From positions 5,183-69,182 of the forward strand of contig CAZOOM010000001.1 in assembly GCA_964581425.1 (NCBI GenBank): DNA of 64,000 bases, read 5' to 3'. Shown piece after piece: positions 5,001 to 41,750 of the stretch. Numbering within the stretch: position 1 is the first letter of the stretch; each line of letters begins with the position of its first letter. The notes beneath the pieces were generated by a model. The model was not told where the DNA came from and did no database searches. It saw only the letters and a program-made list of their open reading frames with translations. This stretch comes from an uncultured bacterium (lineage in GTDB: Bacteria > Omnitrophota > Omnitrophia > Omnitrophales > Aquincolibacteriaceae). The translations under genes and the position numbers were made by a program.

Positions 5001-6792
5001 AAAAATATTTGAGTGGACTCGTAGCGAGGCCCTTGGAAAAAATCTGCACCGCCTAATAGTGCCTGAACGTTATTGGAAGGACCATGAAAAGGCATTCCCG
5101 CAATTTCAGAATTCAGGAGAAGGAGCTGCTGTTGGAAAAAGACTAGAGTTATTCGGGAAGCGCAAGAGTGGGAATGAAATTACAGTGGAGCTATCGCTAT
5201 CTGCAATTCAAATTGAGGGGCATTGGAATGCGGTTGGCATTATGAGAGACATTACCGAACGTAAAATAGTTGAAGAAAAAATGCGATGGCAGCACACGGC
5301 TCTCGAATCCGCCGCCAATGGGATTGTGATTCTAAACGTTCATGGGCAAATCTTGTGGGTCAATCCGGCATTTCAAGCTTTGACAGGATATTCTTCCGAA
5401 GAAGCGATTGGGAAAAATCCTAGAATATTAAAATCCGGGAAACATGACGCCTCATTTTACAAGGATTTGTGGGACACCATTTTAGCTGGAAAAGTTTGGT
5501 GTGGAGAAATCATCAACAAACGAAAAGACGGCAGCTTTTATACGGAAGAAATGACGATCACGCCGGTTAAAACTGACACCGGGATCAGTCACTTTATTGC
5601 AATTAAGCAGGACATTACTTCTCGAAAACAATACGAAGAAAAAGTCCGCCGCTCGCAGCGAATGGAAAGCGTTGGCATGATGGCCGGAGGCGTGGCTCAT
5701 GATTTCAATAATATTTTGACTGTCATTGGCGGTTATCTCGATCTTGTCATGATGAACGAAGCTACGGTCAAAAAACACACACTAGAGCTTACAGAGATTA
5801 AAGAGGCTGTTCAACGTGCCAGTCAGCTTGTAAAACGATTATTAGTATTTAGTCGAAAAGAAGTGTCGGCGCCTAAGGTTTTTGAAATAAATGTTTTGAT
5901 TCAAGATCTTGAAAAAATGCTAACGCGGTTGATGGGAGAGCATATTGAACTTTCATTAAAGCTGAAACCAGGAATAGGCAATATCAAAGCCGATCCAAGT
6001 CAGGTTGAGCAAGTGATAGTCAATCTGGTAGTCAATGCCAGGGATGCCATGCCTAATGGAGGTAAAATTCTCATTGAAGCGAGTGACGTCATTTTAGATG
6101 AGGATTATTCTGAACATTATGTCAATATTCCGGCAGGCCATTATGTCTTGATCGCAATTCAAGATAATGGAACAGGAATGAGCGACGAGGTTAAGGAGCA
6201 CCTCTTTGAGCCGTTTTTTACAACAAAACCCAAGGGAAAAGGTACGGGGCTCGGATTAAGCATGTGTTTTGGAATTATGAGACAGAGCCATGGGCATATC
6301 AGTGTATACAGTGAGGTTGGGCATGGTACAGTCATCAAACTGTATTTCCCCAAAGTCCTTGAAACAGGCGAAGCTTTAATTTGTCAAAAAACAGATGATG
6401 TTTTTCCGTGTGGAAATGAAACTATTCTTGTTGTGGAGGACGAAGGTTCTTTGAGGAAATTAGCTGTGACCATTTTGTCTCAGCAAGGTTATGTTCTTCA
6501 TGAAGCCGAGAATGGGCTTAAAGCCTTGAGCTATATCGAGAGTCATCCAGAAATTAAGTGGGATCTGATTGTGACGGATGTGATCATGCCTCAAATGAAT
6601 GGAAGAGATTTAGCCGCAGAGCTTTGGAAGCGATATCCTAAACTTAAAATACTATTTATGTCAGGATATACTGATGACGCCATGGTTCGTGGCGGGATTC
6701 GTTCAGGAGCTATTCATTTTCTCCAGAAGCCTTTCACCCGCAGAAGTTTTTCTTTTAAGATCCGCGAGGTTCTTGATTCCAATAAATCATAA
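2062..6792 (+). CDS. Hybrid sensor histidine kinase. It has a signal peptide, a periplasmic PhnD/ABC-type phosphonate-binding-like domain, a TM segment, multiple PAS domains, HisKA, HATPase_c and a C-terminal REC.
   Basis: TTG start at 2062 (an alternative ATG is at about 2125). The N-terminus is hydrophobic. The periplasmic domain (IGILANRGKEE...TNAFYLPKFE...) resembles COG3221 solute-binding proteins. A TM helix (WMLVFVLVVTVLIIILFIL) follows, then about four PAS repeats. H-box AHDFNNILTVIGGY has its His near 5698. The G-boxes are DNGTGM and GTGLGL. REC is ILVVEDEGSLR...LIVTDVIMPQMNG with its Asp near 6576. Confidence 0.85.
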   Translation: MHYKLSSIKLLCWFRSLLFFLMLMNSFAWGQVFAAQSSEVKYYKIGILANRGKEECLSRWKSTVDVLNQKIPGMHFAIVPLGFDEVDNAVEGKQVDFALTNAFYLPKFEKFHKVQSLVTLSTTGPGPFEGMLGGVIFTRANRQDINEIHDLKGKSFAATDFQSVGWIASLRELRLAGLHEGHDLKALVKLGENNRVVEAVQKGEVDAATIRTGIFEQLVQEGKIRIEDFKILHPRENLPFICSTRLYPEWVWMRLEHVPMSEGNELARVLLSIPKESEAARTGKYQSWMLPLNSESIHDCLKELRISPYESFGIIQFQEVFQAYWPWMLVFVLVVTVLIIILFILSFAGRDVEAALQRERSPFAIWIIFFVIAGGIIASVRWYYVDQKNSIRENHFALLNALSNNSQQQITEWFHEMNTHLTSITQDPMVRKATRDLVTSSSKLAMDQNLPDYFKEFNRRENFDNASVLDIHGKLLWTLDLKKFNFIQLADSTSVQSLLQKQSITIVGPDVSKLAQGAFIDVAMPLLDSALPNVPYGILVLTNNLEKKIYPLLREWPMPTHSGEMMLARREGDKVVFISPLRFSKRGEAVRTLSMNETNHPAVMAARGMEGNVEGVDYRNVKVLAVIKKISETPWYLIAKMDENEVYEGLQGRHGLMIGMTTGSILLVAAFLALFMNLRDKRFYKKLYQMEKDLSRRDIQFYSFAESSLDLIYRLNRQRVVIYISPAIRKMLGYNESQILNRRFSDLVHRDYVLTIERAYEEILKGKPIRNLEIKILKKNGEFIEGEVNASPIFEEDQVVQIQGVIRDISERKHREEELRQSEEKFKLLAEGLQDVVMRISVGGKIEYCSPAVKEFGGYDSQEEKGEFIGKYFANPLELVKTLNLMKELTISRKPSTISFFYRSKNTPPFMVEVSGRPLIKNNQVVSFMCVMRDISQRVKAEMEMRKREATLNTITSAAQDAIVMMDDQGLITFWNPAAEKIFEWTRSEALGKNLHRLIVPERYWKDHEKAFPQFQNSGEGAAVGKRLELFGKRKSGNEITVELSLSAIQIEGHWNAVGIMRDITERKIVEEKMRWQHTALESAANGIVILNVHGQILWVNPAFQALTGYSSEEAIGKNPRILKSGKHDASFYKDLWDTILAGKVWCGEIINKRKDGSFYTEEMTITPVKTDTGISHFIAIKQDITSRKQYEEKVRRSQRMESVGMMAGGVAHDFNNILTVIGGYLDLVMMNEATVKKHTLELTEIKEAVQRASQLVKRLLVFSRKEVSAPKVFEINVLIQDLEKMLTRLMGEHIELSLKLKPGIGNIKADPSQVEQVIVNLVVNARDAMPNGGKILIEASDVILDEDYSEHYVNIPAGHYVLIAIQDNGTGMSDEVKEHLFEPFFTTKPKGKGTGLGLSMCFGIMRQSHGHISVYSEVGHGTVIKLYFPKVLETGEALICQKTDDVFPCGNETILVVEDEGSLRKLAVTILSQQGYVLHEAENGLKALSYIESHPEIKWDLIVTDVIMPQMNGRDLAAELWKRYPKLKILFMSGYTDDAMVRGGIRSGAIHFLQKPFTRRSFSFKIREVLDSNKS

Positions 6793-19899: not shown

Positions 19900-22800
19900 T
19901 TACTCATGTGCTCCAACCAGCTTTCTGGAAGGGGTTGATGGCTTCTCTGTTTTGACAGATGCAGCTTCAGGAACTTTCTTAAGCGGACTTTTTGAAATAT
20001 CACGTTTCACTTTTGTGATCTTTAAATTTCCGCGAGGTTTATCCAAGTCACTCGGAAGGACGAGCTGATTTCGGATTAACGTTGCGCCTGCAACCCCTTC
20101 AAAAGCCTGTCGCAGCATCCAGCCAGCGGCGCCGGTGTAACCATTCCAAATCATGCGGCCAAGTTCAAATGTAGTAAGAAAGTCAGCCGGCTGTTTGTTC
20201 GGTTGTCCGCCGTAAATTTCAATTTCCTGAGGTGTGACGTGAGCAATCGGAGAAACTTTTTGCCAGAGCCGATAAGCGGTTGCTCGGTACTCTTCAGCTT
20301 TTGCGTGATCCTTGCGCGCTTCAAATTCTTCAGCGAGTAATCTTGCGGCACGCACGAGCCACTGAACACCGTGACAGTACATTCCATTTTCACGGACACC
20401 TTCAGGATATTTGCTGCTCCGTCCGAGATAGGGTTTGCTGTCTTCGCGAAGCGCGGGCCATCCGAGAAGGATACAACTGCCGCGTTCGAGAACTTGAAGT
20501 GCGGTATTGAACACCGTAACCGCGCGTTCGAAATTCATGCCGGCCATGACAGCCCATGCCGCGGTCAAGGCATCGATTTCCCAAATGCCGCTGTCTTTGA
20601 CACCGATTTCCGTACCATCATCATGAAAGGCACGAAGATAGCGGTCGCCACGCCAAGTGGTTTCCAGACACTCTTTAAGTGCTTCCAGTTTTTGAACATA
20701 AAATGCTTTTTTCTGTGCGCCTTCTTTACGTTCAATAATAGGAACCATTTCTTTTAGGATGTAATAGAGGAAAAATCCGAGCCACACACTTTCACCGTGA
20801 CCTTCGCCTCCGATTTCATCGAGTCCGTCATTCCAGTCTCCGGTCCCCATTAACGGAAGACCGTGTTTGCCGGTGCGTTTTTTGATCACAAGATCAATCG
20901 AACGCATGCAATGTTTGTAAAGCGTATCACCGCGCGTGGTCCGATGATAAAGATGCCCCCAGCCGCCTTTATTTTTCGGAAGCTGAGCAAACGGAAACTC
21001 CGACATGACGTAAGATGCCATCTCATCCAGAATCGTGTCATCACCCGTCATGCGAATATATTCCACAGCAGCCCAAGCGAGCCAGAGCGGATTATCCGAA
21101 GCGTGTGAGCGGCAAGAAAATGCCGTGCGTCCGTCCACGAGCGTGAAGAACCAGTGAAACACATCGCCTTCTAAGAACTGCTGAGAGGCATGCAGAAGGA
21201 TTTGCTTCCGTGCCAATGCTGGATCCATCCAAATCAGATTGATCGTGTCCTGCAACTGATCGCGGAAACCGTAAGCGCCGCTGGTTTGATAAAAACCTTT
21301 GCGTGCCCAGATGCGTTCGGCGAGTGCCTGATATTTGAGCCAGTTTTGATAGCGGTCAAACTCAGGTTGATTGGTTTCCACTTTGGCGGATTCCATAAGC
21401 GCGAGCCACCACTGGCGCGTGCTCTCAAGACTCTTTTTCGCATTTTCCAGATTTTTATATTTTTGAACAATGCGGGCAGCATCTTTTTCAGAATCCGTTT
21501 GACCAAGTACCACAGCCAATGTGAATTCCTGATGCGACGGAATTTCAACCGAACCAAGGAAAGCAGCAATTTGTCCGGGATCCTTCGATTCTTTTTCATC
21601 CGGATGTCCCATTTCAACTAAGTAAGGGTGCGAGGGTCCGCGTCCGTCTCCAAAAAATCGTCCGCGTTTAGTTTCGACGAGTTCCGGATTCACAGACATT
21701 GAGGCAAAGGCCCAGCCATTTCTAAAAATATTTCTCGGGTTTGAGAAATAAAGTGCGTTCAAAGCCTTGTCATGTTTCGTGACAAGCGGGCCTGAACGTT
21801 CCGGCTGAAAGGAAAGAACCATCTGAAAATAAGGAGCCACACGAAGCCTGCGTGTTTGGTTTCCTGTATTTTTGATGCGCAAAAGGTAAATGCCAGTAGG
21901 TTCATCAGTAGGAACAAAAACCGTAAGCTCTGTGGACAAGGTTCCTTTAGACATGCGGAACACTGCTGTCCCGTCCACGCTGAAATCACAATCATGTTTG
22001 GCACTCACATCATTAATGGGGTGATACGTGGGAGAAAACCATTCCTTCTGATCTTGGTCATAAAGATAAATGGCCTCAGTAGGAATTTCTTTCGTGACCG
22101 TATCCGGCCAATCTGGCGTGAGACGATTTTGCTGTGAGTTTCCGTTACACGAAGTGTGAAGTCCGCGATTCGTGACCATGACTGAATGCGTGGGGTTTGA
22201 CATCCCGTGGTCAAAAGGCCGAGGAGTAAACGGAGTCAGCACGCGCATGGTATTGCCTTTATCCAGAAACTCAAAATAAGGTTGCGGAGTTTTGGGATAA
22301 ACTTCTCCGTGTCCGATTAAGAGGCTGCGTTTTTTGCCAGCCGCTGGCACGGATTTAGGAGCCAGAGGTTTTAAGAATTTTTGGATCAAATCAAGGGCAA
22401 TGCCTTTGTTTTTGGAGTAACCTATGACGAGTTTCATGCTCACAGATGCTTGAGCGCCTACCGGGGCATTGACCATCAAGCTTCCAATAGGGTCAAAGGT
22501 TGGGCAAGCGGGCGTGTCCTTTGCAGGCAGAAAATCCAAAGTCTCAAGCGCTCGAGGAGTCCAGACACTTTTCCCACGTCCGATGAAATCAACTCGGCCT
22601 GTGAGGAATCCTTCCGGAGCGAGATCCGAGGCCATGAATCCCATGGACTTCGTGCTCTTTTGCCAAGAAATAATGGCATTCGCTCCGCTCACATATTCCA
22701 TTTCAGGATAAAGACGAGCGTACTGAGTATGGAATCGGTCGTGCATCCAACCGTTTAAAACCCACTCAAGATACGAAACGACTTTGAGCTGCCGCGGTTT

Positions 22801-25800
22801 TTCTGTCAAATTCTCTACCGTGATATTCCAAAGCTCAACAGGGCTGTCCTGATCAGGCAGTCGGATTTCGATCGTGGATTTGACACCGTTGTGAGTTTGG
22901 GTGAGCTTTAAACTGTCTTCAACTTTTTCAACGCTCGCATTAGGAAAATATTCACGAGGACAGTTTCCCATTATAGGCCAGGATACAATTTTCCCTTTGG
23001 CCGCATCAGTCGTGTCGACGATGAAGAGAATGCGTCCCGTGGGATCCATAAAATCGTAGGATCGGCGGCTGATGTCGCACTCTTTTCCTGTGAGTTCACT
23101 GTAAACTTCTGCATTGGCTTTTGCGGTCACTTTATACTCCCGATTTGAGAGTTCGAAGGACGCAAGGGCCTTTTTGGCTGCGCGCTCGCGTGAAGCACGA
23201 ATCAAAAATGCGAAAAAGGAGCAAACCAAAATCGCTCCTGCCATTAGGAAAAACATTTGTCCTGCAGAGAGCGATTGAAGAAAAGCGAGCAGCCCTTTTC
23301 CTCGGTTTGCATTTTGCATGGCTTCCGAAGCACTCCAAACATATTCCCATTCAGCGCCGCGCGGGATGTAAAAAGGAATCAGAAGAGGCGCCCAAGTGGT
23401 AAAGCGTTTGACCCCTTCAGGGATGTAGCGCTGAGCCGCGGCAGGTCCAATAAATCGTGACAGTTTTTCGTCCAATCGATCCATGCCGATGAAGCTCAAA
23501 TTCACAAGCGTGGCCACGCGAAGTCCCATGTGGTCCATCCAAATCAGGATGCGGAGAAAATCAAAAGCCATCATCCAAAGGAAAACCTGAAGACTCCAGT
23601 TGTGGAAATCTGTCGGAGAAGAGGTTGTGTTATGCCAGATGGCAAACAGGGTGCGGATGGCTCCGTCCTGGTTGTACCAAGTCGGCTCGGGCATGACGCG
23701 TAAAAAGGTGGCAATAATCGGTGACATCCAAAGTCCCCAACGAAGGACGTAAATCAAGTTTTCGATTAACGAAGCAAATCCCGCTTTGGAAAAGAAAAAT
23801 TTGATTGGAGTCGTATCTTTTTCAAAAATGGATTGAAGAAAAACTTTGTTGATGGCAAAGAGCCAGGCTGCGATCGACCAGTTGATGACTCCGGCAAGAG
23901 ATTCGAGGAAAATCAATTTGACTCCGCCTGAGTAATGACCCAGATCAATGCGTCCCCATTTGTTTAAGAGGGGAATGGTGTTGTAGGCGATCGGATCAAA
24001 TCCTGAGCTTGTGTAGAGCTTGAATTTTTCTACAATCACAGGCACTTGAGCGGCATCAAGGTAAAACGCGACTGCACTTCCTACGAAAATCCCAAAAATG
24101 GAATCAGTGAAATAAAGTTTCCAAGTTTGAATTTTCCCTTGATGGCGAAGGCCGTAAAAAATATCCCGAAGAAGACTGACGCCTCCGGAGGCCAGAAGTC
24201 CCATCATCAAACCGAAAACAATTCGGTCCGGCATGGCTTTGGTGAACATTCCTTGAGAAAACATCACGGCAAATCCGTAGCCTGCGATCGCTCCGCGCAA
24301 ATACAACCAGCCATTTTGATAGCTGTAAGCTGTGCGTTCAAAAAAAGGAAGGCTGCCGTCAAAGGTTTCGATAATGGTTTTCAGGAATGGGAAAATCAAA
24401 GCACCGGCCAAAATCCCAATAAAGATGGGCGAGCTTGTCATGGCGCTGTGGACAAACGATAATTTGAGTGTGATTTGAAGCGCGTAAAGAATGGCCATCA
24501 AAATCGAGCTATAGGCAAATCCTTTGCGGGCACCGGTATCGATATTTTTGAAAATATTTTCTGGAGTTGGGGCCGCATTTTTTCCAGCGTCCAAGAAAAT
24601 ACCAGTTAAAAGATAAACTTCCCCCCAAAGACCTGCGAAAGAAAGACCGGTCGCGATGACTGCGATCACAGCTTGCAACAGAATCGGCAGGGAAGCCACG
24701 CCAGCTGATGATGCGAGTCCAGCAATCATCGGAGCTGCGGTGGCACCCAGAGAAACCCCAAGCAAAATCCAGTGGGCTTTTGCGGTTTTGAGGATTCTTC
24801 CTTTGGTCAGCATTCCAAAACTGTTCGTAACGATCTCATTAAAAAGAAAAAGTACAAGAGCGCGGCCCAGAAACTCCGCCATGGCAGGCCATGCCTTGGT
24901 AAGAGTCAGAGTAAGGCCCAATCCGAGTTTTTGAAGCAGGATGGGGTTTTCGAGCAAGAGCAGCCATCCAAAAAGGAATGGGGTCAGGACAATCATAAAA
25001 GCAGGTGTCTTTTTGAGATGTTTTCCGGAAGAGCACATGCTATTAGCATTAAAAATTTGATAAATCAAAAAGGCGATGCACGCGGTCAGCTTGTTGATTT
25101 GGAAAAGCTCGCTCCATCCTGCAGGCGCTTGTAAAAGATCAAGCCGGCTTGAAGCTACTGCCAGCATTCCGGTGAGAAAAATATTTTGGAACACTTCACC
25201 GCGACTGAGATGTTTTCCCGTCAAACGGATTTTTAGAAGTTCAGCAATTAATCCTCCTGCTAAAGCGACCGCAAGAAAGGTCCAACTGAAACCAACATCT
25301 AAAATACCAGAAGTGCCGAGTGAGTAAATCCGAATCGCAAGTGCGAGAATAAAAATCGTCATGGTTCCGGTAAAAAAATCTCTGCCCGAAAAGCCTTTGG
25401 GAGATTCTTTGGGCTTTTCCGGGGTCGCGGATTTGCTGGATTTAAGAACTAAGCCAGCGAACCACGAGAAAATAAGAGCGGTCAGGAGCACAAGTCCTAA
25501 TTTAAGAAATGTGGCATGACGCTCCACAAAAGTAGTTTGATTAAAATCAAAATCAAAGAAAAAAGAACCCATTACAGGCTTGATCTCTTCGGGCTTAGCA
25601 TTCATGGGCGGAACAATCATGGGGCTTACAACAAAAACAAATTCACGAAGTTCGCCAATCTTATTCCATCGGATAAATTCGCGCAGAGAATTCCACCCTG
25701 TTTTGAGCTGCAAAATGGGAATGATTTGGGTATCCAGGCTTCCCTTGACTTCAATTTTAACGGCTGCTTGGCGGGCATTTTGGTTTTCAGGAATTTTGAC

Positions 25801-27219
25801 ACCGACTCTGACAGCATCTGCGTTTGCTGGCTTGAGTCCTTCCGGAAATGTTTTGGACCACACACCTACCACGGTTCCCTGAGGAAGATTGTAGTCAAAT
25901 TTCCAAACATCTTTTTCGAGCGTTTCATCGTAAGCCACGGCAACATTGCCTGAAGAATTACCGATATTAAAAACGCCTTTTTCTCCAGCATCAAAAAGGG
26001 TATAGGCCGGAAGCGGTCCAGAGTTTTTCACTTCAGTGGATTTGCGTTTTACAAATTCGAGTGAAAAATCAAGAGTTCCTTTGGCTTCACTACCGGTGGT
26101 TTCAGGATTTAAAATTAAACTCACTTCTTTCAAGGCTGCAATCGAAGACCAATCAATGGATTGCTGAATCGAGTTCCATCCGGATTTAAGCTGGAGGGGG
26201 ATGGTTTGAGTTCCCTGGCTGCCTTTGATTTCAAGCTGAGTGGAAATGGATTTTGCCTGAGCGTCGTCCAAAAGACGAATTCCAAGCTTCACCGTATTGA
26301 TGACTTCACCGGTTAATGTTTCAGGATAGTCTTTGGTCCAAAGTTTGACAGATCCCTTTTGAGGAAGGACATAATCAAGTTCAATGACGTCTTTTCCCAT
26401 GGCTTCATCAAAAGTAGAAGTCACAGTGCCCTTGGAAGCTTCTCCAGCATCAGCGCCATTTTCTTTGGCATCAAGATGCGAGTAGGAAGTTTTCACTTGA
26501 GCAGGTTGCGCGGCAGGCATTTCAATGTTCGGAGTTTCAATCTTGGGGGCAATTTTTTCTACAACTTCGGTTGCCTCTTTGGTAGCCGCAGGAATGACAT
26601 CGGCAACTTTGGCTTTTACGGTTTTGACGATTGGTGCGCGAAAAGAAAGATCCGAGGTGAAATCTAAAGTCCCTTTGACAGTTTCTGTGGCGCTTTTCGG
26701 ACTGATGATAAAAACAATTTGATCCAAATTTCCAATCGTTGACCAATCAATCGAAGCCTGGGCATTGGACCATCCTGATCTCACAGAAACCGGTACCGAC
26801 TGTGTATTGACAGTACCTCGGATTTCCATAGCAATCGAGATTTGAGCCGCTTGGCTTGCTTCAAGGGTTTTGATTCCAGCTTTGAGAAGGTTTACACTTT
26901 CAGGTGTGACTGCAGCGGGAAAGTTTTTTGTCCAAACGACCAAAGATGAGTTCGGGGCCAATGTGTAATCCAGTTCGAGCACATCTTTGCGCGCAGACTC
27001 ATCATAAGTTGAAGTTAGAGTCCCCTTGGCCTCTCCCTTGATCACAACGCCATTTTCTTTGGCATCGAGAAGGGAATAGGTGGCGGTTTCAGCTGCTTGC
27101 AACATTCCAAGATGTGGAATGGCAAAGAGTCCGGCAGTCAAGATAACGGCTGCCAGCATGAGCGCGGAAAAGCGCTGATGAGATGCGATCGCTTGTTTAA
27201 GACGGGTCCATGACTTCAT
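19900..27219 (-). CDS. Giant multidomain membrane protein of about 2440 aa. It has a signal/TM, three tandem ~150-aa extracytoplasmic repeats, a polytopic membrane domain of about 850 aa, and a GH94 glycoside phosphorylase module made of two N-terminal beta-sandwich-like regions plus an (alpha/alpha)6 catalytic domain. It resembles a cyclic-beta-1,2-glucan-synthase C-terminal region.
   Basis: GH94 hallmarks are present: GAYGFRDQLQD and the catalytic GDWND (about 20826-20840 on the minus strand), plus YCHGVQWL. The three repeats each carry ...LDAKENG...KGT.TST.DE...KDV.ELDY.L......WTK..P........K.GI.......A.......EI.G...TQ..P...KSGWN.....IDWS.I. The membrane region (about 22950-25500) has at least 16 predicted helices. 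The likely start is ATG 27219 with an AAGGAA RBS. The track ORF begins at 27270. The C-terminus is a Lys/Pro-rich tail. Confidence 0.85.
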   Translation of the reverse strand: MKSWTRLKQAIASHQRFSALMLAAVILTAGLFAIPHLGMLQAAETATYSLLDAKENGVVIKGEAKGTLTSTYDESARKDVLELDYTLAPNSSLVVWTKNFPAAVTPESVNLLKAGIKTLEASQAAQISIAMEIRGTVNTQSVPVSVRSGWSNAQASIDWSTIGNLDQIVFIISPKSATETVKGTLDFTSDLSFRAPIVKTVKAKVADVIPAATKEATEVVEKIAPKIETPNIEMPAAQPAQVKTSYSHLDAKENGADAGEASKGTVTSTFDEAMGKDVIELDYVLPQKGSVKLWTKDYPETLTGEVINTVKLGIRLLDDAQAKSISTQLEIKGSQGTQTIPLQLKSGWNSIQQSIDWSSIAALKEVSLILNPETTGSEAKGTLDFSLEFVKRKSTEVKNSGPLPAYTLFDAGEKGVFNIGNSSGNVAVAYDETLEKDVWKFDYNLPQGTVVGVWSKTFPEGLKPANADAVRVGVKIPENQNARQAAVKIEVKGSLDTQIIPILQLKTGWNSLREFIRWNKIGELREFVFVVSPMIVPPMNAKPEEIKPVMGSFFFDFDFNQTTFVERHATFLKLGLVLLTALIFSWFAGLVLKSSKSATPEKPKESPKGFSGRDFFTGTMTIFILALAIRIYSLGTSGILDVGFSWTFLAVALAGGLIAELLKIRLTGKHLSRGEVFQNIFLTGMLAVASSRLDLLQAPAGWSELFQINKLTACIAFLIYQIFNANSMCSSGKHLKKTPAFMIVLTPFLFGWLLLLENPILLQKLGLGLTLTLTKAWPAMAEFLGRALVLFLFNEIVTNSFGMLTKGRILKTAKAHWILLGVSLGATAAPMIAGLASSAGVASLPILLQAVIAVIATGLSFAGLWGEVYLLTGIFLDAGKNAAPTPENIFKNIDTGARKGFAYSSILMAILYALQITLKLSFVHSAMTSSPIFIGILAGALIFPFLKTIIETFDGSLPFFERTAYSYQNGWLYLRGAIAGYGFAVMFSQGMFTKAMPDRIVFGLMMGLLASGGVSLLRDIFYGLRHQGKIQTWKLYFTDSIFGIFVGSAVAFYLDAAQVPVIVEKFKLYTSSGFDPIAYNTIPLLNKWGRIDLGHYSGGVKLIFLESLAGVINWSIAAWLFAINKVFLQSIFEKDTTPIKFFFSKAGFASLIENLIYVLRWGLWMSPIIATFLRVMPEPTWYNQDGAIRTLFAIWHNTTSSPTDFHNWSLQVFLWMMAFDFLRILIWMDHMGLRVATLVNLSFIGMDRLDEKLSRFIGPAAAQRYIPEGVKRFTTWAPLLIPFYIPRGAEWEYVWSASEAMQNANRGKGLLAFLQSLSAGQMFFLMAGAILVCSFFAFLIRASRERAAKKALASFELSNREYKVTAKANAEVYSELTGKECDISRRSYDFMDPTGRILFIVDTTDAAKGKIVSWPIMGNCPREYFPNASVEKVEDSLKLTQTHNGVKSTIEIRLPDQDSPVELWNITVENLTEKPRQLKVVSYLEWVLNGWMHDRFHTQYARLYPEMEYVSGANAIISWQKSTKSMGFMASDLAPEGFLTGRVDFIGRGKSVWTPRALETLDFLPAKDTPACPTFDPIGSLMVNAPVGAQASVSMKLVIGYSKNKGIALDLIQKFLKPLAPKSVPAAGKKRSLLIGHGEVYPKTPQPYFEFLDKGNTMRVLTPFTPRPFDHGMSNPTHSVMVTNRGLHTSCNGNSQQNRLTPDWPDTVTKEIPTEAIYLYDQDQKEWFSPTYHPINDVSAKHDCDFSVDGTAVFRMSKGTLSTELTVFVPTDEPTGIYLLRIKNTGNQTRRLRVAPYFQMVLSFQPERSGPLVTKHDKALNALYFSNPRNIFRNGWAFASMSVNPELVETKRGRFFGDGRGPSHPYLVEMGHPDEKESKDPGQIAAFLGSVEIPSHQEFTLAVVLGQTDSEKDAARIVQKYKNLENAKKSLESTRQWWLALMESAKVETNQPEFDRYQNWLKYQALAERIWARKGFYQTSGAYGFRDQLQDTINLIWMDPALARKQILLHASQQFLEGDVFHWFFTLVDGRTAFSCRSHASDNPLWLAWAAVEYIRMTGDDTILDEMASYVMSEFPFAQLPKNKGGWGHLYHRTTRGDTLYKHCMRSIDLVIKKRTGKHGLPLMGTGDWNDGLDEIGGEGHGESVWLGFFLYYILKEMVPIIERKEGAQKKAFYVQKLEALKECLETTWRGDRYLRAFHDDGTEIGVKDSGIWEIDALTAAWAVMAGMNFERAVTVFNTALQVLERGSCILLGWPALREDSKPYLGRSSKYPEGVRENGMYCHGVQWLVRAARLLAEEFEARKDHAKAEEYRATAYRLWQKVSPIAHVTPQEIEIYGGQPNKQPADFLTTFELGRMIWNGYTGAAGWMLRQAFEGVAGATLIRNQLVLPSDLDKPRGNLKITKVKRDISKSPLKKVPEAASVKTEKPSTPSRKLVGAHE
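25545..27087 (-). repeat. Three tandem ~150-aa protein-domain repeats inside the giant ORF. This is the extracytoplasmic N-terminal region. A carbohydrate-binding-module role is possible.
   Basis: Protein residues about 62-215, 262-410 and 425-575 align with each other at roughly 30-40% identity. DNA identity is low, so this is an old duplication. Confidence 0.6.
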
Positions 27220-27957
27220 AGGATGGTTCCTTTTCTTCAGTGGTTTTTTAAAACTTAGCAAACAAATCAAAAAAATGATTTCAAGTCATCATGATTTTAG
27301 GAAGGTCGCAATTTGTTTTTGAAATACGCATTCGATTGCTCAAAACTTTTTGCGAGACTATTTTATTTCTTTATTAAGAGCCCGAGTTAACCAAGAACAC
27401 GAATCCCTTAATTATTTTTTTTCGATTGAACACTCGCAGATTGCCTTGGAAATTTCAGGAAGTGGATCGCTTGGGAGAGCGTTCTAACCTGATGCTTGCC
27501 AAAGGCCTAAGCAGAGTTCCCATCCTAAAAGGCCAGATGAACTTTCCTATTATATCCATGACAGGCGGATAGGTAAAAATTTTTCTTGATCTTTTTCAAC
27601 CTAATAAAAGGTCGCTCCCCATTGGGGTCTCATTCCTTATGAAAGAAGATAAAGACTTCATGAAATTGATCAAGAATGCAAACAAATGGGCTTGGATGGT
27701 CACAATCAGAATACAACTGACTAGCGGGTACCCCTTAGGTCCCTTATGGATTAGGAGCCTGATCGGTGAAGAATCTCCTTTTGGTAATCATCCCTCTCTT
27801 TTGAGGTCAGCTGATCCGGGAAAAGCCCAATTTCGATATCGTAAGAATCTCCTTTGAGGCCTGTACTCATGGGTACGGAGCCTTGTCTGAGCAAACGGTC
27901 TGCGTAGAGTTCCTTTTTAAAGAATCCCGAGTGAGTAATAAAAGGATGAGGCGAGTA

Positions 27958-34369: not shown

Positions 34370-36493
34370 ATGAGTCAATGTCCATCATCCAATCAAAAGA
34401 TAACAATTGAAGTGGAAAAAGAATTAGAAGAATATTCAGGTTGGATTCGCAAATTTCGAGCCGGAGAGATCGGGGATATTAAAATGCAGAAGATCCGTCT
34501 TCAGCTTGGGACCTATGCCCAGCGCCAGGACGGAGTTCAGATGCAACGCATCAAAATTCCAGGCGGCGTTCTTTCATCGGCTCAACTTTTGCAGCTTGCG
34601 CGTGCTGCAGAAAAGTACGGAAGCGGATTTATCCATTTCACAACACGTCAGGATGCTCAAATCTACTACATCAAGCTTGAAGATTGCCCCGCGCTTCTTC
34701 GGGATTTGATGTCGGTTGGCATCACGACACGCGAAGCTTGCGGAAATACGGTAAGAAATATTACTGCGTGCTACCGTTCCGGCATTGCTGCGGATGAAGT
34801 TTTTGACGTGACGCCTTATAACGAAGCGCTCTTTCGTTTTCTTCTCAGAAATAAATACAATCAAGTCATGGGACGCAAATTCAAAATTGCTTTTGAGGGA
34901 TGCGTTCAAGATCACTCAGGCATGCGCTTTCATGATATTGGCTGGAAAGCGGTGATTCAAAATGGAAAGCGCGGATTCCGGGTTTATCTTGGAGGCGGAC
35001 TTGGAGCCGTTCCGATTTTAGGAGAACTGTACACGGAATTTTTGCCTGAGGAAAAAATGCTGGAATTAGCAGCAGCGCTGGTACGGCTCTTTGATCGTTA
35101 CGGAGAACGTAAAAACCGGATGCAGGCGCGCATGAAATTTTTGATCAAGAAACTCGGATGGGAGGATTTTAAATCCAAACTGGATCAAGAACGTAAAGCA
35201 ATCAAGCTTCCTGCTTCAGCTAATGATTTTCTAGGGACGGTTCTCCAACAGAGAACCGTCGCTGACAGACCATTTCAAGCGGTTTCATCATCGATTGAAA
35301 AAAATATGGATTTTGTGCGTTGGACAGAAAGTCATTTGGTTGCTCATCGAGTTTCTGGTTTTCATGGCGTGATTGTCCGGCTCAAATTGGGAGATCTGAC
35401 CACGCCGCAAGCTGAAGCGCTAGCGAAGGTTGCAGATGATTTTTCGCAGGGAGAACTGCGCGTGACCATGGACCAAAATTTATTTCTTCCCTGGGTGCCT
35501 CAGAAGGCACTATTTGCGCTTTATCAAGCCCTTTCCAAAATCAATCTTGCGGATTCTGGAGGAGAAACTTTGGAAGATACAACGACTTGTCCTGGTGCAG
35601 ACACCTGCCGTCTTGGGATTACTTCTGCAAAAGGTCTTGGATCAAGCATCAGCGCTTCCTTTCGAGCGCAATTAGAAAGTCATCGCGCATTGACTAAAGA
35701 TCTGCGCGTTAAAATATCAGGATGTCCCAATGGCTGTGCGCAGCATGCGGTCGCTAGTATTGGATTTCAAGGAGCGGCGCTGAGTCAGGAAGGGAAAACC
35801 GTTCCTGCTCACGAAGTTTATGTCGGCGGTGACATTTGCTTGGATCAGACGCGTGTAGGTGAACGCGTGGGAAAATTTCCGGCACGAAACGGCCCTCAAA
35901 TCGTGGAAACATTAGTGGCGCTTTTTGCTAAGGAGAAAAATAAAGACGAATCTTTTGCCGCTTGTATGGTTCGTCTTGGAAAAGATCGAATCAAAAATGT
36001 GCTAGAACCACTTGCGAAAGTCCCTTCTTTTCAGGACGATCCAAGTTTTTATCAGGATTGGGGACACGACAACGAGAAATTTGCCATCCGTGCCGGCATC
36101 AAAGGAGAGTGCGCAGGTTCTCCGATTCAAGAAAAGGTTCCCACCTTTCACGAGGCTCGCGAGAAGTTTTCGCAAGCTGCTGCTTTGTTGGCACACGAAG
36201 AATGGGAGAATGCTCATATTCAAATTTATGAAGCCATAGCTGCAAGCGCACGCGTTCCTCTCTATGCTTTGATGGTAGATCCGTTTACGTCTGAACAAGT
36301 GATATGGGAATTTGAAAATATTTTTGTCCGAAGCGGAAAGACCTCTGCTGAGTGGGATCAATTTTCTGAAAAAGTAGAAGCCGAAAAAATCAAACCTGCG
36401 TCTGAAAAATCCGCACAAGTATTTTTAGAGTGGGCTAAAAAATTTCATTCTGTTTGCGAGCAGCTTGCAGAAAAACCTGCGCCAGCAGCGTAG
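34370..36493 (+). CDS. Ferredoxin-type sulfite/nitrite reductase hemoprotein (siroheme-[4Fe-4S], NirA/Sir family) with a C-terminal extension of about 150 aa.
   Basis: Siroheme/FeS Cys clusters TTCPGADTCRLG (C-x5-C) and SGCPNGCAQH (C-x3-C). The N-terminal half is duplicated with a degenerate site, ACGNTVRNITAC. Confidence 0.8.
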   Translation: MSQCPSSNQKITIEVEKELEEYSGWIRKFRAGEIGDIKMQKIRLQLGTYAQRQDGVQMQRIKIPGGVLSSAQLLQLARAAEKYGSGFIHFTTRQDAQIYYIKLEDCPALLRDLMSVGITTREACGNTVRNITACYRSGIAADEVFDVTPYNEALFRFLLRNKYNQVMGRKFKIAFEGCVQDHSGMRFHDIGWKAVIQNGKRGFRVYLGGGLGAVPILGELYTEFLPEEKMLELAAALVRLFDRYGERKNRMQARMKFLIKKLGWEDFKSKLDQERKAIKLPASANDFLGTVLQQRTVADRPFQAVSSSIEKNMDFVRWTESHLVAHRVSGFHGVIVRLKLGDLTTPQAEALAKVADDFSQGELRVTMDQNLFLPWVPQKALFALYQALSKINLADSGGETLEDTTTCPGADTCRLGITSAKGLGSSISASFRAQLESHRALTKDLRVKISGCPNGCAQHAVASIGFQGAALSQEGKTVPAHEVYVGGDICLDQTRVGERVGKFPARNGPQIVETLVALFAKEKNKDESFAACMVRLGKDRIKNVLEPLAKVPSFQDDPSFYQDWGHDNEKFAIRAGIKGECAGSPIQEKVPTFHEAREKFSQAAALLAHEEWENAHIQIYEAIAASARVPLYALMVDPFTSEQVIWEFENIFVRSGKTSAEWDQFSEKVEAEKIKPASEKSAQVFLEWAKKFHSVCEQLAEKPAPAA

Positions 36494-37788: not shown

Positions 37789-38163
37789 TTATTTTTTTGG
37801 ATCATGTGGATGAGTGAGGTGAGTGATTTCTTCTTCAAATTTAACCACGCCAACCTTCCACAATTTGCCTAAAAACGGCCCAAAAAGAAAACCCAGCGCG
37901 GCCAGCATCGCACCTGCAGAAATAAAAGCAAGCAAGGATGTGAAAAGTTTCCCTAAAGGAGTAGCAGGAGAAACTGAAGGCGCAGGACCCTGACCCGTGG
38001 CAATCATGCTGGTAAAATAAAAAGAATCAATGAAACTGAAACCTTCAATCACGTGTATGCCAATGGTTCCAAGGAGAAGAACAGAACAAACGAGCAAAAA
38101 ACAGTACAGCCCTCGATGAGCTGCTGAATGATAGTTATGTTTTTTGACAGGTTGATTTTCCAT
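37789..38163 (-). CDS. Small 2-TM pore-loop cation-channel-like protein (KcsA-like fold) with a non-canonical selectivity filter.
   Basis: TM1 is LYCFLLVCSVLLLGTIGIHV. The pore helix and filter read SFIDSFYFTSMIATGQGPAPSVSPATPLGKLF. This aligns to the KcsA LWWSVETATTVGYGDLYPVTLWGR region, but TGQG replaces TVGYG. TM2 is LLAFISAGAMLAALGFLF. It is 124 aa. Confidence 0.5.
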   Translation of the reverse strand: MENQPVKKHNYHSAAHRGLYCFLLVCSVLLLGTIGIHVIEGFSFIDSFYFTSMIATGQGPAPSVSPATPLGKLFTSLLAFISAGAMLAALGFLFGPFLGKLWKVGVVKFEEEITHLTHPHDPKK

Positions 38164-38280
38164 GCGGCCTCCCTTAAAGATTGGATCGAATAAGCTATCA
38201 CTATGCGTGCTTCAGCTGAGGCTGTCAAGGTCCGAGGGAGTGATGTGGCAGGTATTCTGAATTTTAGATATACTCAAATC

Positions 38281-38871
38281 ATGAATGCCATGCCTAAAAG
38301 TCGCCTTGAAGCCTTTAGTGACGGAGTCCTTGCCATCATTATCACCATCATGGTGCTTGAACTTAAAGTGCCTCATGGAAACTCTCTGATGGACCTCAAG
38401 CCTCTTTTCCCGATTTTTCTGAGTTATGCATTGAGTTTTGTTTACGTTGGAATTTACTGGAACAATCACCACCATCTTTTTCATGCCGCCAAGCAGATCA
38501 ATGCAAAAATCATGTGGGCCAATCTGCATCTTTTATTTTGGCTTTCTCTGATCCCTTTTGTAACAGGATGGTTTGGAGCAAATCATGGTGGTGTTTGGCC
38601 CACAGCATTTTACGGGCTGGTGTTACTCATGGCAGGATTTGCCTATCTTTTGCTCCAACAACTGATCGTGGCAACTCAGGGAGAAAATTCTGCTTTAGCC
38701 TCAGCCATTGGGAAGGATTGGAAGGGAAAAATTTCTTTAATGAGTTATGTGATAGCGATCGGAGTTGCTTTTTATCAACCCCGGATTTCTGCGGCACTTT
38801 TTGTTGCTGTGGCCCTGATGTGGCTCATTCCTGATGAGCGCCTTGAACGTTCTCTTGCTTCTGAAAAATAA
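38281..38871 (+). CDS. DUF1211 / TMEM175-family potassium channel homolog.
   Basis: Signature RLEAFSDGVLAIIITIMVLEL is the RxxxFSD motif of TMEM175 TM1. Six predicted TM helices. Start taken at ATG 38281. The track ORF begins at 38203. Confidence 0.7.
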   Translation: MNAMPKSRLEAFSDGVLAIIITIMVLELKVPHGNSLMDLKPLFPIFLSYALSFVYVGIYWNNHHHLFHAAKQINAKIMWANLHLLFWLSLIPFVTGWFGANHGGVWPTAFYGLVLLMAGFAYLLLQQLIVATQGENSALASAIGKDWKGKISLMSYVIAIGVAFYQPRISAALFVAVALMWLIPDERLERSLASEK

Positions 38872-39869
38872 TGACAAACCCAATCTTTCATGTTTTGAAT
38901 CGAATCGTTTTTAGTGTGCTTGTATGTCTTAGCGTTTATTTTTGTGTGGTATTAGTTCGCGATCCTGAAGCGAATTTGTTCCCGGGTTTTCATCTTGATG
39001 TGTTGATGCAGCGTTCTTACCTTTTAGGCAGCCGTGAAATCAAAATGATTTTTCAGGGAAAACAGCGTTCTTTTTTGATCCATCATGTTCACGCGGAAAG
39101 AAATAAAAAACCGCATCCATTGGTTTTAGTGCTGCACGCTTCGGATTCGAATGCGTATGAAATCGAAGAATTTTTAGGCATGAATCACGAAATTTCACGC
39201 AGAAAATGGATGGTGGCTTATCCTAACGGCACAGGAGATGAGAAAAGAAAAATATTTAATTGGAATGCGGGGAATTGTTGCGGGGCTGCGTTTCAAAATC
39301 AAATAGATGATGTGGGTTTTCTTCATGCTGTGATTGCAAAAATAAAGACCAAGTATCCGGTCGATCCTGCACGCATTTATGTTACGGGTTTTTCCAATGG
39401 CGGGATGATGGCTTATCGAGCGGCGTGTGGATTATCAGATGAAATTGCAGCGGTAGCACCCGTTGCTGGAGCATTGGATGATCCTGATTGTCGTCCCGCG
39501 CGTCCTATTTCGGTGATCGCTTTTCACGGAGAATGGGACCGGACGATTCTTTATCATGGAGGCGTGAGTCCGATTGATCTTGAAAAAAGTTATGATCAGT
39601 CCGTGGATTTTGCCATGAAATTTTGGTCCAAACAAAACGGATGCTTAACAACTCCTCAAGAGATTCATCGCGGCTCGCTCACGCGCGTTCTTTATTCCGG
39701 ATGCCGTGAAGGCACCGAGGTTATGTTGTGGAGTTTTGCGCGAGGGGGACATGATTGGCCGGGTTTAAAATCAGGACTTACGTTTGATCGACTTCCGTCT
39801 GACTCGGAAAATTTATCAGCCACCAAAGAAATTCTAAATTTCTTCGAAAAACATCCGCGCCAATCTTGA
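38871..39869 (+). CDS. Membrane-anchored alpha/beta-hydrolase of the PHB-depolymerase / LpqC-like esterase family.
   Basis: N-terminal anchor IVFSVLVCLSVYFCVVLV. GFSNGG gives the nucleophile elbow. A His lies near the C-terminus in GGHDWPG. Confidence 0.65.
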   Translation: MTNPIFHVLNRIVFSVLVCLSVYFCVVLVRDPEANLFPGFHLDVLMQRSYLLGSREIKMIFQGKQRSFLIHHVHAERNKKPHPLVLVLHASDSNAYEIEEFLGMNHEISRRKWMVAYPNGTGDEKRKIFNWNAGNCCGAAFQNQIDDVGFLHAVIAKIKTKYPVDPARIYVTGFSNGGMMAYRAACGLSDEIAAVAPVAGALDDPDCRPARPISVIAFHGEWDRTILYHGGVSPIDLEKSYDQSVDFAMKFWSKQNGCLTTPQEIHRGSLTRVLYSGCREGTEVMLWSFARGGHDWPGLKSGLTFDRLPSDSENLSATKEILNFFEKHPRQS

Positions 39870-39874
39870 TTTTT

Positions 39875-41239
39875 TTATTTCTTTGCTTCGAACTTGGCAG
39901 GCAAGCGATCTAAAATTTCCTGAATAAGCACTTCACCTTGGCGGGCATAATCAATAGCTTCTCCAAGGATGCGTGCGGCTTCCTGCGGAGCATGAAAACC
40001 CATGGAATTTTCAGCATTAACAAAGTCAGCCCGCCACTGGGCTTTGCGTTGGAGTTCATAAATAGCAGTTAAATCCTCTTCTTTAACTCCCTGCTTTTTA
40101 GCTTCTGCAATTTTAGAGATGAGGGATACGAGTGCGTCTTCGGCCCTGTTTAAGAGTTTCTCATTGCGGTCCTGGATTATGTCCACACGTTCCTGCATCT
40201 CTTTTTCTGTGAAGTGATGACACTGCAAGCAGGCGCGCGAAATATTTAGAAGAGGGCTTCGGATGTAGTGGTCTGTTACTTTGGTGGCGCCTTCACGAAC
40301 ATAGGGCATGTGACAATCAGCACAGGCCACCCCACTTTTAGCGTGAACCCCCTGGCTCCACATTTCAAATTCGGGATGCTGAGCTTTCAAAACTTCAGCG
40401 CCTGTGATTTCGTGTTTCCAATCGTAAAAACGATGGCCGTCCTTAAATTTGTATTGATTATAAAAAGCCTCGATCTCTTCGACCTTCAGGCCATTGTTCC
40501 AGGGATAGAACAAAGTGGTTTTCGAACCACAGTAATACTCCACATGACACTGGGCGCAGACAAACGTGCGCATTTCTTGACGTGTTGCGGAAAGATTGGG
40601 GTCATAATTCTTAATGCCTTCAAGCTCTTTGAGGACTTTGATTCCGCGGAGGAATGCCGGACGAGTGACGCGCAGTTCCATGGTTTTCGGATCATGACAA
40701 TCAATACAAGCCACCGGATGCTTCGCAAGCTGCCAGGCCTCTTGGATCGGCATGTTGGAAACTTTCTCAAAGCCGGCTTGAATATCTCCATCGCCTGCTT
40801 TTTCATAAATATTTTTGAGACCTCCTGCGTGACACTGAATGCAGGAACCAATTTGCTTAAATTTTTTCGTGCGTTGGGTTTCTTGTTGATCGAGTAAGGA
40901 ATAATAGTGGCCGCGGCGGGGATTGTAATCAACGCTAAAAGCATATCCTGCAAAAATGGTTTTCAGCCGCGGATCTTTTTCTAGCTTGGAAATCCCTTCG
41001 CTTCCACCGTAACGCGTATGAGTTTTGAGCGACGTTTTTTTGTATCCATCTAGCTCACGGGGATAATTTCTTCCCCAAATCTCAGGATCAATGGTTTCCT
41101 CCGTGAGTTCTGTCACTTCAACGTTCCGAACCTTGGCTTCTTCTTTGCGTTCACGGATATTTAAAAGAAGGGCCACAAGTGAAGCGGTAGCGATTGCGGT
41201 CAGGCTAATGATGAGCAAGTAGGGAAGTAATTTTTTCAT
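39875..41239 (-). CDS. nrfA: Pentaheme cytochrome c nitrite reductase (ammonia-forming) catalytic subunit.
   Basis: Five CxxCH motifs: CIQCH, CIDCH, CAQCH, CADCH and CLQCH. Also an N-terminal signal anchor, FYPWNNG, and VACADCHMPY. All hemes are CxxCH, with no CxxCK. This is the Campylobacter/delta-type NrfA pattern. Confidence 0.85.
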   Translation of the reverse strand: MKKLLPYLLIISLTAIATASLVALLLNIRERKEEAKVRNVEVTELTEETIDPEIWGRNYPRELDGYKKTSLKTHTRYGGSEGISKLEKDPRLKTIFAGYAFSVDYNPRRGHYYSLLDQQETQRTKKFKQIGSCIQCHAGGLKNIYEKAGDGDIQAGFEKVSNMPIQEAWQLAKHPVACIDCHDPKTMELRVTRPAFLRGIKVLKELEGIKNYDPNLSATRQEMRTFVCAQCHVEYYCGSKTTLFYPWNNGLKVEEIEAFYNQYKFKDGHRFYDWKHEITGAEVLKAQHPEFEMWSQGVHAKSGVACADCHMPYVREGATKVTDHYIRSPLLNISRACLQCHHFTEKEMQERVDIIQDRNEKLLNRAEDALVSLISKIAEAKKQGVKEEDLTAIYELQRKAQWRADFVNAENSMGFHAPQEAARILGEAIDYARQGEVLIQEILDRLPAKFEAKK

Positions 41240-41279: not shown

Positions 41280-41750
41280 TTAATCCAAGTTCATGTGGCC
41301 CGCTGAACGGTGGCACTGCGTACACCGGGCCGTATGCTGCTCGACATCGTGATGCGCTGCAATGTCACTGACCAAAGTCGAGTGACAATCAATGCAGTTG
41401 TGTTGCAATGCTTCCAAATTATGTTTCGTGATTCGAATGGGTTCCGGAAAGTTTTGAAGTGTAAAAGCTTTTGAGTGATTAAAACCATTTCGTCCTTTTG
41501 CGAAATATTTTTCAAGAAACGGATGCGGAACGTGGCAGTCGTTGCAGGTGGCGGCATGATGATGGCTTGAACGAACCCAGGAATCATAATACTCCGTCAT
41601 AACGTGACAGTTCATGCAAGATTTTGGGTCATTGCCTAAATAAGAATAGCCTTTAGCATAAATAAAAAGAAAACCTCCGAGGCCAAACAAGATCCCGGAA
41701 CAAATTGCTACCAGTAGGAAAAGCCATTGCCGCGGAGAAAGTTTTATCAT
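41280..41750 (-). CDS. nrfH: Tetraheme cytochrome c quinol dehydrogenase, NapC/NirT family.
   Basis: N-terminal TM and four CxxCH motifs: CMNCH, CNDCH, CIDCH and CTQCH. It is immediately upstream of nrfA on the same strand. Confidence 0.85.
   Translation of the reverse strand: MIKLSPRQWLFLLVAICSGILFGLGGFLFIYAKGYSYLGNDPKSCMNCHVMTEYYDSWVRSSHHHAATCNDCHVPHPFLEKYFAKGRNGFNHSKAFTLQNFPEPIRITKHNLEALQHNCIDCHSTLVSDIAAHHDVEQHTARCTQCHRSAGHMNLD

Follow-up and report, generated by a model that had tools for sequence, protein, structure and literature searches.

The window analysed here, a 64,000-nucleotide stretch of contig CAZOOM010000001.1 (assembly GCA_964581425.1) from an uncultured bacterium of the Omnitrophota, carries at positions 37789..38871 two divergent open reading frames (ORFs), one on the minus strand encoding a protein of 124 residues (37789..38163) and one on the plus strand ending at 38871. 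The minus-strand product, referred to below as the small channel, is a conserved and so far unstudied variant of the P-loop pore with an undescribed filter motif, and the plus-strand product is a member of the TMEM175 (DUF1211) family. We hold it to be probable that these are two independent cation-channel genes, one for a P-loop pore subunit with a non-K+ filter and the other for a standard TMEM175, which are adjacent by coincidence. This reading builds on the homology of the small protein, its fold, the conservation of its motif and the lack of a conserved pairing of the two genes, all observed in the comparisons reported here. The starting point was a preliminary description of the same sequence, whose 124-residue minus-strand ORF and whose sequence FYFTSMIATGQGPAPSVSPATPLGK were both recovered in the small protein.

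The P-loop pore domain of the small protein is genuine, its similarity to known channels being well beyond chance. The pore homology claimed in the preliminary description stands, as the Pfam hidden Markov model (HMM) of ion-channel pores Ion_trans_2 (PF07885) matches residues 24-93 with 27 bits against a gathering cutoff of 22.5 (E 4.2e-6) and the monomer is modelled as a pore domain. Used as a single phmmer query against the Protein Data Bank (PDB), the protein retrieves the MthK pore as its best match (E 5e-8), with NaK and its mutants at about 1e-6; the family profile gives the same ranking (MthK 2.8e-8), and hhalign relates the family alignment to NaK with a probability of 96.5%. The AlphaFold2 (AF2) model of the monomer, built from an alignment of 86 sequences, has a mean predicted local distance difference test (pLDDT) score of 86.5 and, according to DSSP, consists of helices at residues 14-40, 44-55 and 69-117 with a loop at 56-68, which is the succession of outer helix M1, pore helix, filter loop and inner helix M2. 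Foldseek comparison of this model with the PDB places the NaK, NaK2CNG and MthK pores on top, with a TM-score to the target of 0.65-0.79 and a probability of 1.0. Hydropathy delineates two membrane segments (residues 14-45 and 70-101), and the distribution of charges, +2 with three His at the N-terminus, -2 in the P-loop and +1 with three His at the C-terminus, is consistent with the usual N-in/C-in topology.

The term "KcsA-like" initially given to this protein is right as to the two-helix pore and imprecise as to kinship, the closest solved relatives being the MthK pore and NaK. With NaK (Bacillus cereus; PDB 2AHY/2AHZ, 3E83 and the NaK2CNG derivatives), itself a non-selective cation channel and the top Foldseek match, the small protein shares the organisation as a small pore-only two-helix P-loop subunit, an IDxxYF in the pore helix, an SPxTxxGK at the start of M2 and a departure from the TVGYG filter. 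Conversely, NaK retains T-V-G (TVGDG), with sites S3/S4 kept beneath an open vestibule, where the small protein has G-Q-G-P in a loop one residue longer, and the small protein displays a long conserved cytoplasmic extension of M2 and no predicted M0 interfacial helix. The MthK pore (PDB 3LDC, 4HYO) is the best sequence match in the PDB and has the same M1-P-M2 layout with a glycine at the M2 hinge position, whereas neither its canonical TVGYG filter nor its C-terminal RCK gating ring is present in the small protein. KcsA is likewise a two-helix pore-only bacterial channel with a cytoplasmic C-terminal helix, and in both proteins His/Arg clusters at the base of M1 and Glu residues after M2 are found, which in KcsA form the pH sensor. 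KcsA differs by its canonical TVGYG filter and, because it is absent among the PDB matches listed at E up to 10, it appears to be more distant from the small protein than MthK or NaK.

The filter region of the small protein reads A-T-G-Q-G-P-A-P, and the K+ signature T-[V/I]-G-[Y/F]-G is absent from it in every register. The alignment from the pore helix through G59 is ungapped in the phmmer comparison with MthK, in the hhalign comparison with NaK and in that of the family HMM with dozens of canonical xTTVGYG channels. In this profile register T56 corresponds to NaK T62 (KcsA T74), G57 to the first filter Thr, Q58 to Val, G59 to the universal Gly and P60 to Tyr/Asp, and a single-residue insertion comes after the P60 equivalence. 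The invariant G59 is aligned to the first Gly of GYG/GDG, equivalent to KcsA G77, in the three profile alignments, and rare relatives reading ATTQGP and ATTEGL keep the T-T doublet, which is consistent with this register. Counted from the YF conserved in the pore helix up to the Pro in the SPxT that opens M2, the stretch is 15 residues long in the window protein, 14 in NaK and 13 in the relatives with a short loop. The P-loop of the window protein is therefore one residue longer than those of NaK and MthK, and only the short-loop relatives have one that is a residue shorter. The filter had initially been described as one residue shorter, with the T of TGQG set against the first Thr of TVGYG; neither point is retained, since the count gives a longer loop and since the profile alignments place T56 opposite the Thr preceding TVGYG and G-Q-G opposite T-V-G, and the alignment on which the description relied itself paired 25 residues with 23. 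The register setting G57-Q58-G59-P60 opposite T-V-G-Y is thus favoured by the alignments, short of proof.

This filter characterises a family of its own. At least 280 relatives of the small protein were found in a search of 5.8 billion proteins, and the best 120 of these 280, of 114-145 residues and 57-77% identical to it, bear no functional name, the sole source name displayed being "hypothetical protein", and about half of them have no recorded Pfam match. In an alignment of 86 members, the invariant columns include A55, T56, Q58, G59, P60, G71, K72, G95 and P96, and the nearly invariant ones F48-Y-F-T-S-M-I54, G57, G84, G91-F92 and F94, so that FYFTSMIATGQGP and GFLFGPF are invariant or nearly so over these 86 sequences. 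The conserved positions of M2 and its extension comprise G84, G91-F-L-F-G95-P96-F97 and K108-x-E110-E-E112. These patterns point to a strong purifying selection focused on the pore helix, the filter and the end of M2, and the conservation of these three parts holds through bacterial and archaeal phyla at 45-77% identity. In the N-terminal stretch, all members of the close family have H12 and R17; in archaeal relatives, Arg-rich stretches stand there instead.

One genome per species being retained, 36 loci of the family were collected, 12 from Omnitrophota, 5 from Planctomycetia, 1 from Eisenbacteria, 6 from unclassified bacteria, 7 from Nitrososphaerota/Thaumarchaeota and 5 from Micrarchaeota. 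The motif over these 36 loci is A-T-[G/A/S]-[Q/E]-G-P, followed by a loop that is as in the window protein or two residues shorter. The bacterial (Omnitrophota, Planctomycetia, Eisenbacteria) and archaeal (Nitrososphaerota, Micrarchaeota) members share 45-68% identity (L001-L036), which implies a transfer of the family between the two domains. Several of the hosts belong to symbiotic or very small-celled lineages. When 1.84 billion cluster representatives were searched exhaustively with the profile, there were 2340 matches at E<=1e-3, 91 at <=1e-10 and 9 at <=1e-30; the best 150 matches comprise about 48 stretches with T-x-[Q/E]-G, a sister group with [L/M]-[T/S]-G-M-G-P and, for the rest, canonical xTTVGYG channels. 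The sister group (P0316, P0321, P0323, P0337, P0346, P0355, P0382 and others) is made of two-helix proteins of about 115-165 residues with [L/M]-[T/S]-G-M-G-P at the filter position; most are under the Ion_trans_2 cutoff, and they too are apparently uncharacterised. A natural tandem was also encountered, P0278 (289 residues), with two pore domains per chain and the loops ITTEGT and LSNEGP. No dedicated Pfam or NCBIfam model exists for the family, and the majority of its distant members are under the Ion_trans_2 cutoff. Full-text literature on the family and sister filter motifs in a channel context yielded nothing relevant, and what the literature offered on non-canonical prokaryotic filters was limited to systems already known, NirBac, NaK and TMEM175 among them.

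From the homology with characterised channels we infer the tetrameric assembly, conduction, selectivity and gating of the small channel. As in MthK, NaK and KcsA, the protein would be one subunit of a homotetramer, with both termini cytoplasmic. In the best-supported register, G57-Q58-G59 would take the place of T-V-G and P60 that of Tyr/Asp, so that the Thr hydroxyl of site S4, the Val, and the Tyr-Gly building sites S1 and S2 would be lost, leaving at most one or two backbone-carbonyl sites and a ring of four Gln (Glu in relatives). Such an arrangement would produce a cation pore devoid of K+ selectivity, in the manner of NaK, cyclic nucleotide-gated (CNG) or glutamate-receptor pores. Smaller departures from the signature already abolish K+ selectivity in NaK (TVGDG), CNG pores and glutamate receptors; because of this, and because the K+ signature is absent in either register, a homotetrameric cation pore of low K+/Na+ selectivity appears the likeliest function. 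The altered or absent K+ selectivity anticipated in the preliminary description is accordingly a reasonable expectation as far as the missing K+ signature is concerned, whereas the comparison with a NaK-like filter does not extend to the residues themselves, G-Q-G-P standing opposite T-V-G-D. Gating would occur at the bundle of inner helices, for which the conserved G84 and G95-P96 of M2 are candidate hinge positions. The conserved cytoplasmic His/Arg and EEE clusters may also be involved in gating, as their K-H-H-Y-H-S..R and K-x-E-E-E stretches recall the KcsA pH sensor, within the limit that archaeal members have Arg-rich stretches in place of the His cluster.

Other functions of the small channel were considered. 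It is conceivable, if rather unlikely in our view, that selectivity arises from the side-chain ring of four Gln/Glu at position 58, somewhat as at the Q/R site of glutamate receptors, and is of a distinct kind, for example for Na+, a divalent cation, NH4+ or H+. Position 58 is indeed Q or E family-wide (M in the sister group), and these two residues replace each other without any basic residue in the P-loop to compensate for the charge, a weak sign that the side chain faces the solvent; no co-variation of Q/E at this position with a charged partner was found. The T-x-[Q/E] spacing would also correspond to that of T-L-E in bacterial sodium channels, whose Glu ring lies in T-L-E-S-W. With the GluA2 pore loop, hhalign picks a register in which QG faces QG, and the AMPA-receptor pore loop (MQQGC...SP....GR) has Q-G at the tip of the loop and the same spacing to SP and G-K/R. 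This likeness is nevertheless devoid of statistical support (probability 0.14%, E 0.41), and AMPA receptors have the opposite membrane topology and ligand-binding domains that the small protein does not have; a kinship with glutamate-receptor pore loops was consequently rejected, the similarity being a resemblance and not a membership. Moreover, the profile register makes position 58 equivalent to KcsA Val76, the side chain of which faces away from the pore. A broader proposal is that of a hitherto undescribed, minimal class of P-loop channels in which the Gln/Glu-ring filter is combined with one or two carbonyl layers, with a selectivity unlike that of K+ channels or NaK, and which would have moved horizontally among Omnitrophota and Micrarchaeota, both symbiotic or very small-celled lineages, and Nitrososphaerota and Planctomycetia; taken as a whole, we advance it as a speculation. 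If it is true, the ring filter would confer a selectivity such as that for Na+, a divalent cation, NH4+ or H+.

A channel that is still K+-selective, with a shortened filter beginning at T56 (T-G-Q-G) and fewer sites, is improbable. The end of the AF2 pore helix at A55 leaves T56 as a possible first filter residue, T56 is invariant in the family alignments, and kdpD/kdpE lie about 1.5 kb upstream of the channel gene in one relative (L004), a weak link to K+ physiology. Conversely, the kinases found near other relatives are histidine kinases of other, unrelated types, T-[VI]-G-[YF]-G is missing in any register, the shortened filter requires two gaps, a deletion within the pore helix and, past the filter, an insertion of two residues, where the profile register needs one insertion, and the changes that suffice to remove K+ selectivity from NaK (TVGDG) and CNG pores are smaller than this one. 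A still weaker case can be made for a protein that does not conduct by itself, as a channel relic or an accessory or regulatory subunit, on the basis of its destroyed canonical filter, its lack of a ligand-binding domain and its marginal Pfam score; conservation over two domains of life peaks at the pore helix, at the filter and where the end of M2 lines the pore, which is unexpected for a relic, and no conserved partner gene adjoins the small channel in the 36 loci compared.

The plus-strand gene is an ordinary one, coding for a standard single-repeat TMEM175 channel. The TMEM175/DUF1211 identity and the RxxxFSD motif proposed at the outset are confirmed by the PF06736 HMM, which is matched over its full length (profile positions 1-88 of 88) with 111.6 bits against a cutoff of 25 (E 2.5e-32), by the presence of RLEAFSD and by the PDB matches, 5vre (CmTMEM175) and human TMEM175, both at 7.5e-12. 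The product has about 195 residues with six hydrophobic segments, and the constriction of the first transmembrane helix (TM1) is conserved in the alignment to 5VRE, with I19 opposite I23 of CmTMEM175, and I23 and L26 opposite L27 and L30, residues which, in the numbering of the published structure, form the hydrophobic constriction. In all these features (full-length PF06736, RxxxFSD, Ile constriction, six segments) it is like the prokaryotic TMEM175 channels of known structure (CmTMEM175, PDB 5VRE; MtTMEM175, PDB 6HD8), with nothing notable that differs. At least 8000 homologues were found at E<=1e-10, many of them 64-71% identical; some are already named as TMEM175 family proteins, and P0154 (66% identical) is named as originating from Candidatus Omnitrophota. 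Among the 119 closest homologues listed, the median length is 194 residues and FSD is at 0-based position 8 in 97. Because of these lengths and of the offset of FSD, ahead of which the homologues start by 8-11 residues, the true start is likely to be ATG 38290, which gives the same offset as in the homologues, or ATG 38281, and the longest ORF (start 38203, 222 residues), the form that the public protein collection contains, probably begins 26-29 codons too early. The over-extended part, 38203-38290, overlaps the promoter-like site of the small-channel gene.

With the starts at 38281 and 38290 backed by the homologues, the spacer between the two genes measures 117 and 126 bp, respectively, and only 39 bp with the longest-ORF start at 38203; the figure of 120 bp given in the preliminary description is thus adequate for the former starts and not for the latter. 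A GGGAGG Shine-Dalgarno sequence is read 6 nt ahead of the ATG of the small-channel gene. None was seen before the TMEM175 ATG at 38281 or 38290, so that this mRNA could possibly be leaderless or have a very short leader. Consensus scanning of the spacer revealed two sigma-70-like promoter matches (Table 1), located back to back and yet separate, the -10 element of the plus-strand one ending 6 nt ahead of ATG 38281. The divergent spacer displays no notable palindromes or repeats, in particular no shared operator-like palindrome, and an Rfam scan of the entire window gave no matches.

Table 1. Positions, in window coordinates, of the two channel genes, of their main parts and of the promoter-like sites between them
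Feature	Positions	Strand	Basis and details
Gene for a 124-residue pore-only two-transmembrane P-loop channel homologue, A-T-[G/A/S]-[Q/E]-G-P family	37789..38163	-	ORF, Pfam, PDB matches, AF2, Foldseek
Inner helix M2 and cytoplasmic helical extension, residues 69-117	37813..37959	-	DSSP helix 69-117; hydrophobic segment 70-101
Filter motif I54-A55-T56-G57-Q58-G59-P60 (IATGQGP)	37984..38004	-	Invariant or nearly so in family alignments
Pore helix FIDSFYFTSMIA, residues 44-55	37999..38034	-	DSSP helix 44-55; aligns with the MthK and NaK pore helices
Outer helix M1, residues 14-40	38044..38124	-	DSSP on the AF2 model; hydrophobic segment 14-45
N-terminal cytoplasmic basic/His-rich stretch HNYHSAAHR, residues 9-17	38113..38139	-	Family alignments
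Sigma-70-like promoter match, TTGACA / 17 nt spacer / CATAGT, 10/12	38200..38228	-	Consensus scan; upstream of the small-channel gene; a pattern match alone, no proof of function
Sigma-70-like promoter match, GTGGCA / 18 nt spacer / TATACT, 9/12	38245..38274	+	Consensus scan
Gene for a single-repeat prokaryotic TMEM175 (DUF1211) channel	38281..38871	+	196 residues from ATG 38281 or 193 residues from ATG 38290
RLEAFSD, the RxxxFSD signature on TM1, residues 8-14	38302..38322	+	Alignment to 5vre

The pairing of the two genes is not conserved in the loci compared, for which the flanks were used as fetched, up to 5 kb per side. A tblastn search with the TMEM175 protein of the window gave no match in the 36 species loci of the small-channel family. 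In six-frame translations of 44 loci, a TMEM175 profile HMM matched none of the 40 small-channel loci and only the four that had been fetched via TMEM175; reciprocally, the small-channel HMM matched all 40 small-channel loci and none of the four loci of close TMEM175 relatives. Unrelated genes surround the small protein's nearest relatives (70% identity), namely those for an LPG synthase and a zinc-ribbon protein in the first of two contigs and for an AAA ATPase and a lipid A acyltransferase in the second, and the neighbours of the closest TMEM175 relatives are varied. Since the adjacency is absent from the 40 small-channel loci and the 4 TMEM175 loci, the head-to-head arrangement is best read as coincidental. 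The coordinated ion homeostasis suggested in the preliminary description from a shared promoter region finds no comparative support in these counts (0/40 and 0/4), the promoter-like sites moreover being separate. It is very improbable that the genes make up a functional pair under joint regulation, read divergently from a single control region and together managing cation homeostasis: their head-to-head order with 117-126 bp between the likely starts, the back-to-back promoter-like sites and the prediction of both products as cation channels are outweighed by the missing adjacency in all 40 family loci and the 4 loci of the closest TMEM175 relatives, by the abundance of TMEM175 (at least 8000 homologues), which makes a chance adjacency to another membrane-protein gene unremarkable, by the spacer without a notable shared operator-like palindrome, and by a one-base overlap with an esterase gene that points to another transcriptional partner for TMEM175.

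This overlap is between the TMEM175 stop codon and the ATG of a gene for a 332-residue esterase of the PHB-depolymerase family (38869-39869), and it suggests that the two are probably co-transcribed. The TMEM175-esterase pairing is absent at the four loci of TMEM175 relatives. The esterase has an N-terminal hydrophobic anchor and scores 147.8 bits with NCBIfam NF050058, just under the cutoff of 150.

All-against-all clustering of the ORFs of the 36 loci revealed no conserved neighbour of the small channel beyond close relatives. Two-component genes are found near it in 7 of the 36 loci (for example L004 162-5363; L010 4998-7522; L011 1460-5348), with no common link evident; in L010, a regulator of the OmpR type begins 7 nt past the channel gene and is followed by a HAMP kinase. 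They were rejected as a functional partner, the recurring cluster being formed by generic response-regulator and histidine-kinase domains and the kinases themselves being different (KdpD in L004, HAMP in L010, CHASE in L011). A DEAD-box helicase was likewise rejected as a conserved neighbour, as it recurs in L028 and L032 only, in differing arrangements. The window itself has a DEAD-box helicase gene downstream of the small one; the encoded helicase shares 71.5% identity with its counterpart in Candidatus Taenariivivens baikalensis (Omnitrophota), which, together with the source named for P0154, makes an Omnitrophota genome likely on sequence grounds.

Some observations weigh against the interpretation of the locus as a conserved non-K+ pore gene lying by chance beside a standard TMEM175 gene. 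The Ion_trans_2 score of the small protein is barely over the cutoff and only 1 of 10 more distant relatives passes it, which places the family at the fringe of the superfamily; the genome scan was made with motif-based patterns, which biases the sampling of the family towards conserved members; the end of the pore helix at A55 in the DSSP assignment is also compatible with T56 as the first filter residue; and the missing synteny is compatible with a co-regulation in this one organism, where the short divergent spacer is shared.

Several other genes of the window were recorded. A cytochrome c nitrite reductase pair is encoded on the minus strand (nrfH 41280..41750, nrfA 39875..41239), close to a 707-residue protein of the nitrite/sulfite reductase type (34370..36493), and these genes point to a putative capacity for nitrite ammonification. 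A minus-strand ORF of 2456 residues (19900-27270) is matched by Pfam over its C-terminal ~770 residues alone, by the GH94 supersandwich and catalytic domains, as in cellobiose and cyclic glucan phosphorylases, and no Pfam match at E<=1e-5 in its N-terminal ~1680 residues. A hybrid sensor kinase of 1576 residues (2062-6792) combines an N-terminal periplasmic domain of the phosphonate-binding type, a Cache-like region, several PAS domains, HisKA/HATPase and a receiver.

Neither the TMEM175 gene nor its pairing with the small-channel gene brings anything new, and the small channel, which leaves the current understanding of P-loop channels unchanged, is the sole part of the locus of real interest. 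P-loop channels are the textbook case of ion selectivity set by backbone carbonyls, of which the NaK, CNG and glutamate-receptor pores are each instructive variants. Many proteins of the small-channel kind are below the Pfam cutoff and remain without annotation. With about 120 residues, no added domains and T-x-Q/E-G-P in place of TVGYG, this family would represent a minimal and easily expressed system in which to approach the selectivity of a Gln/Glu-Gly-Pro loop.

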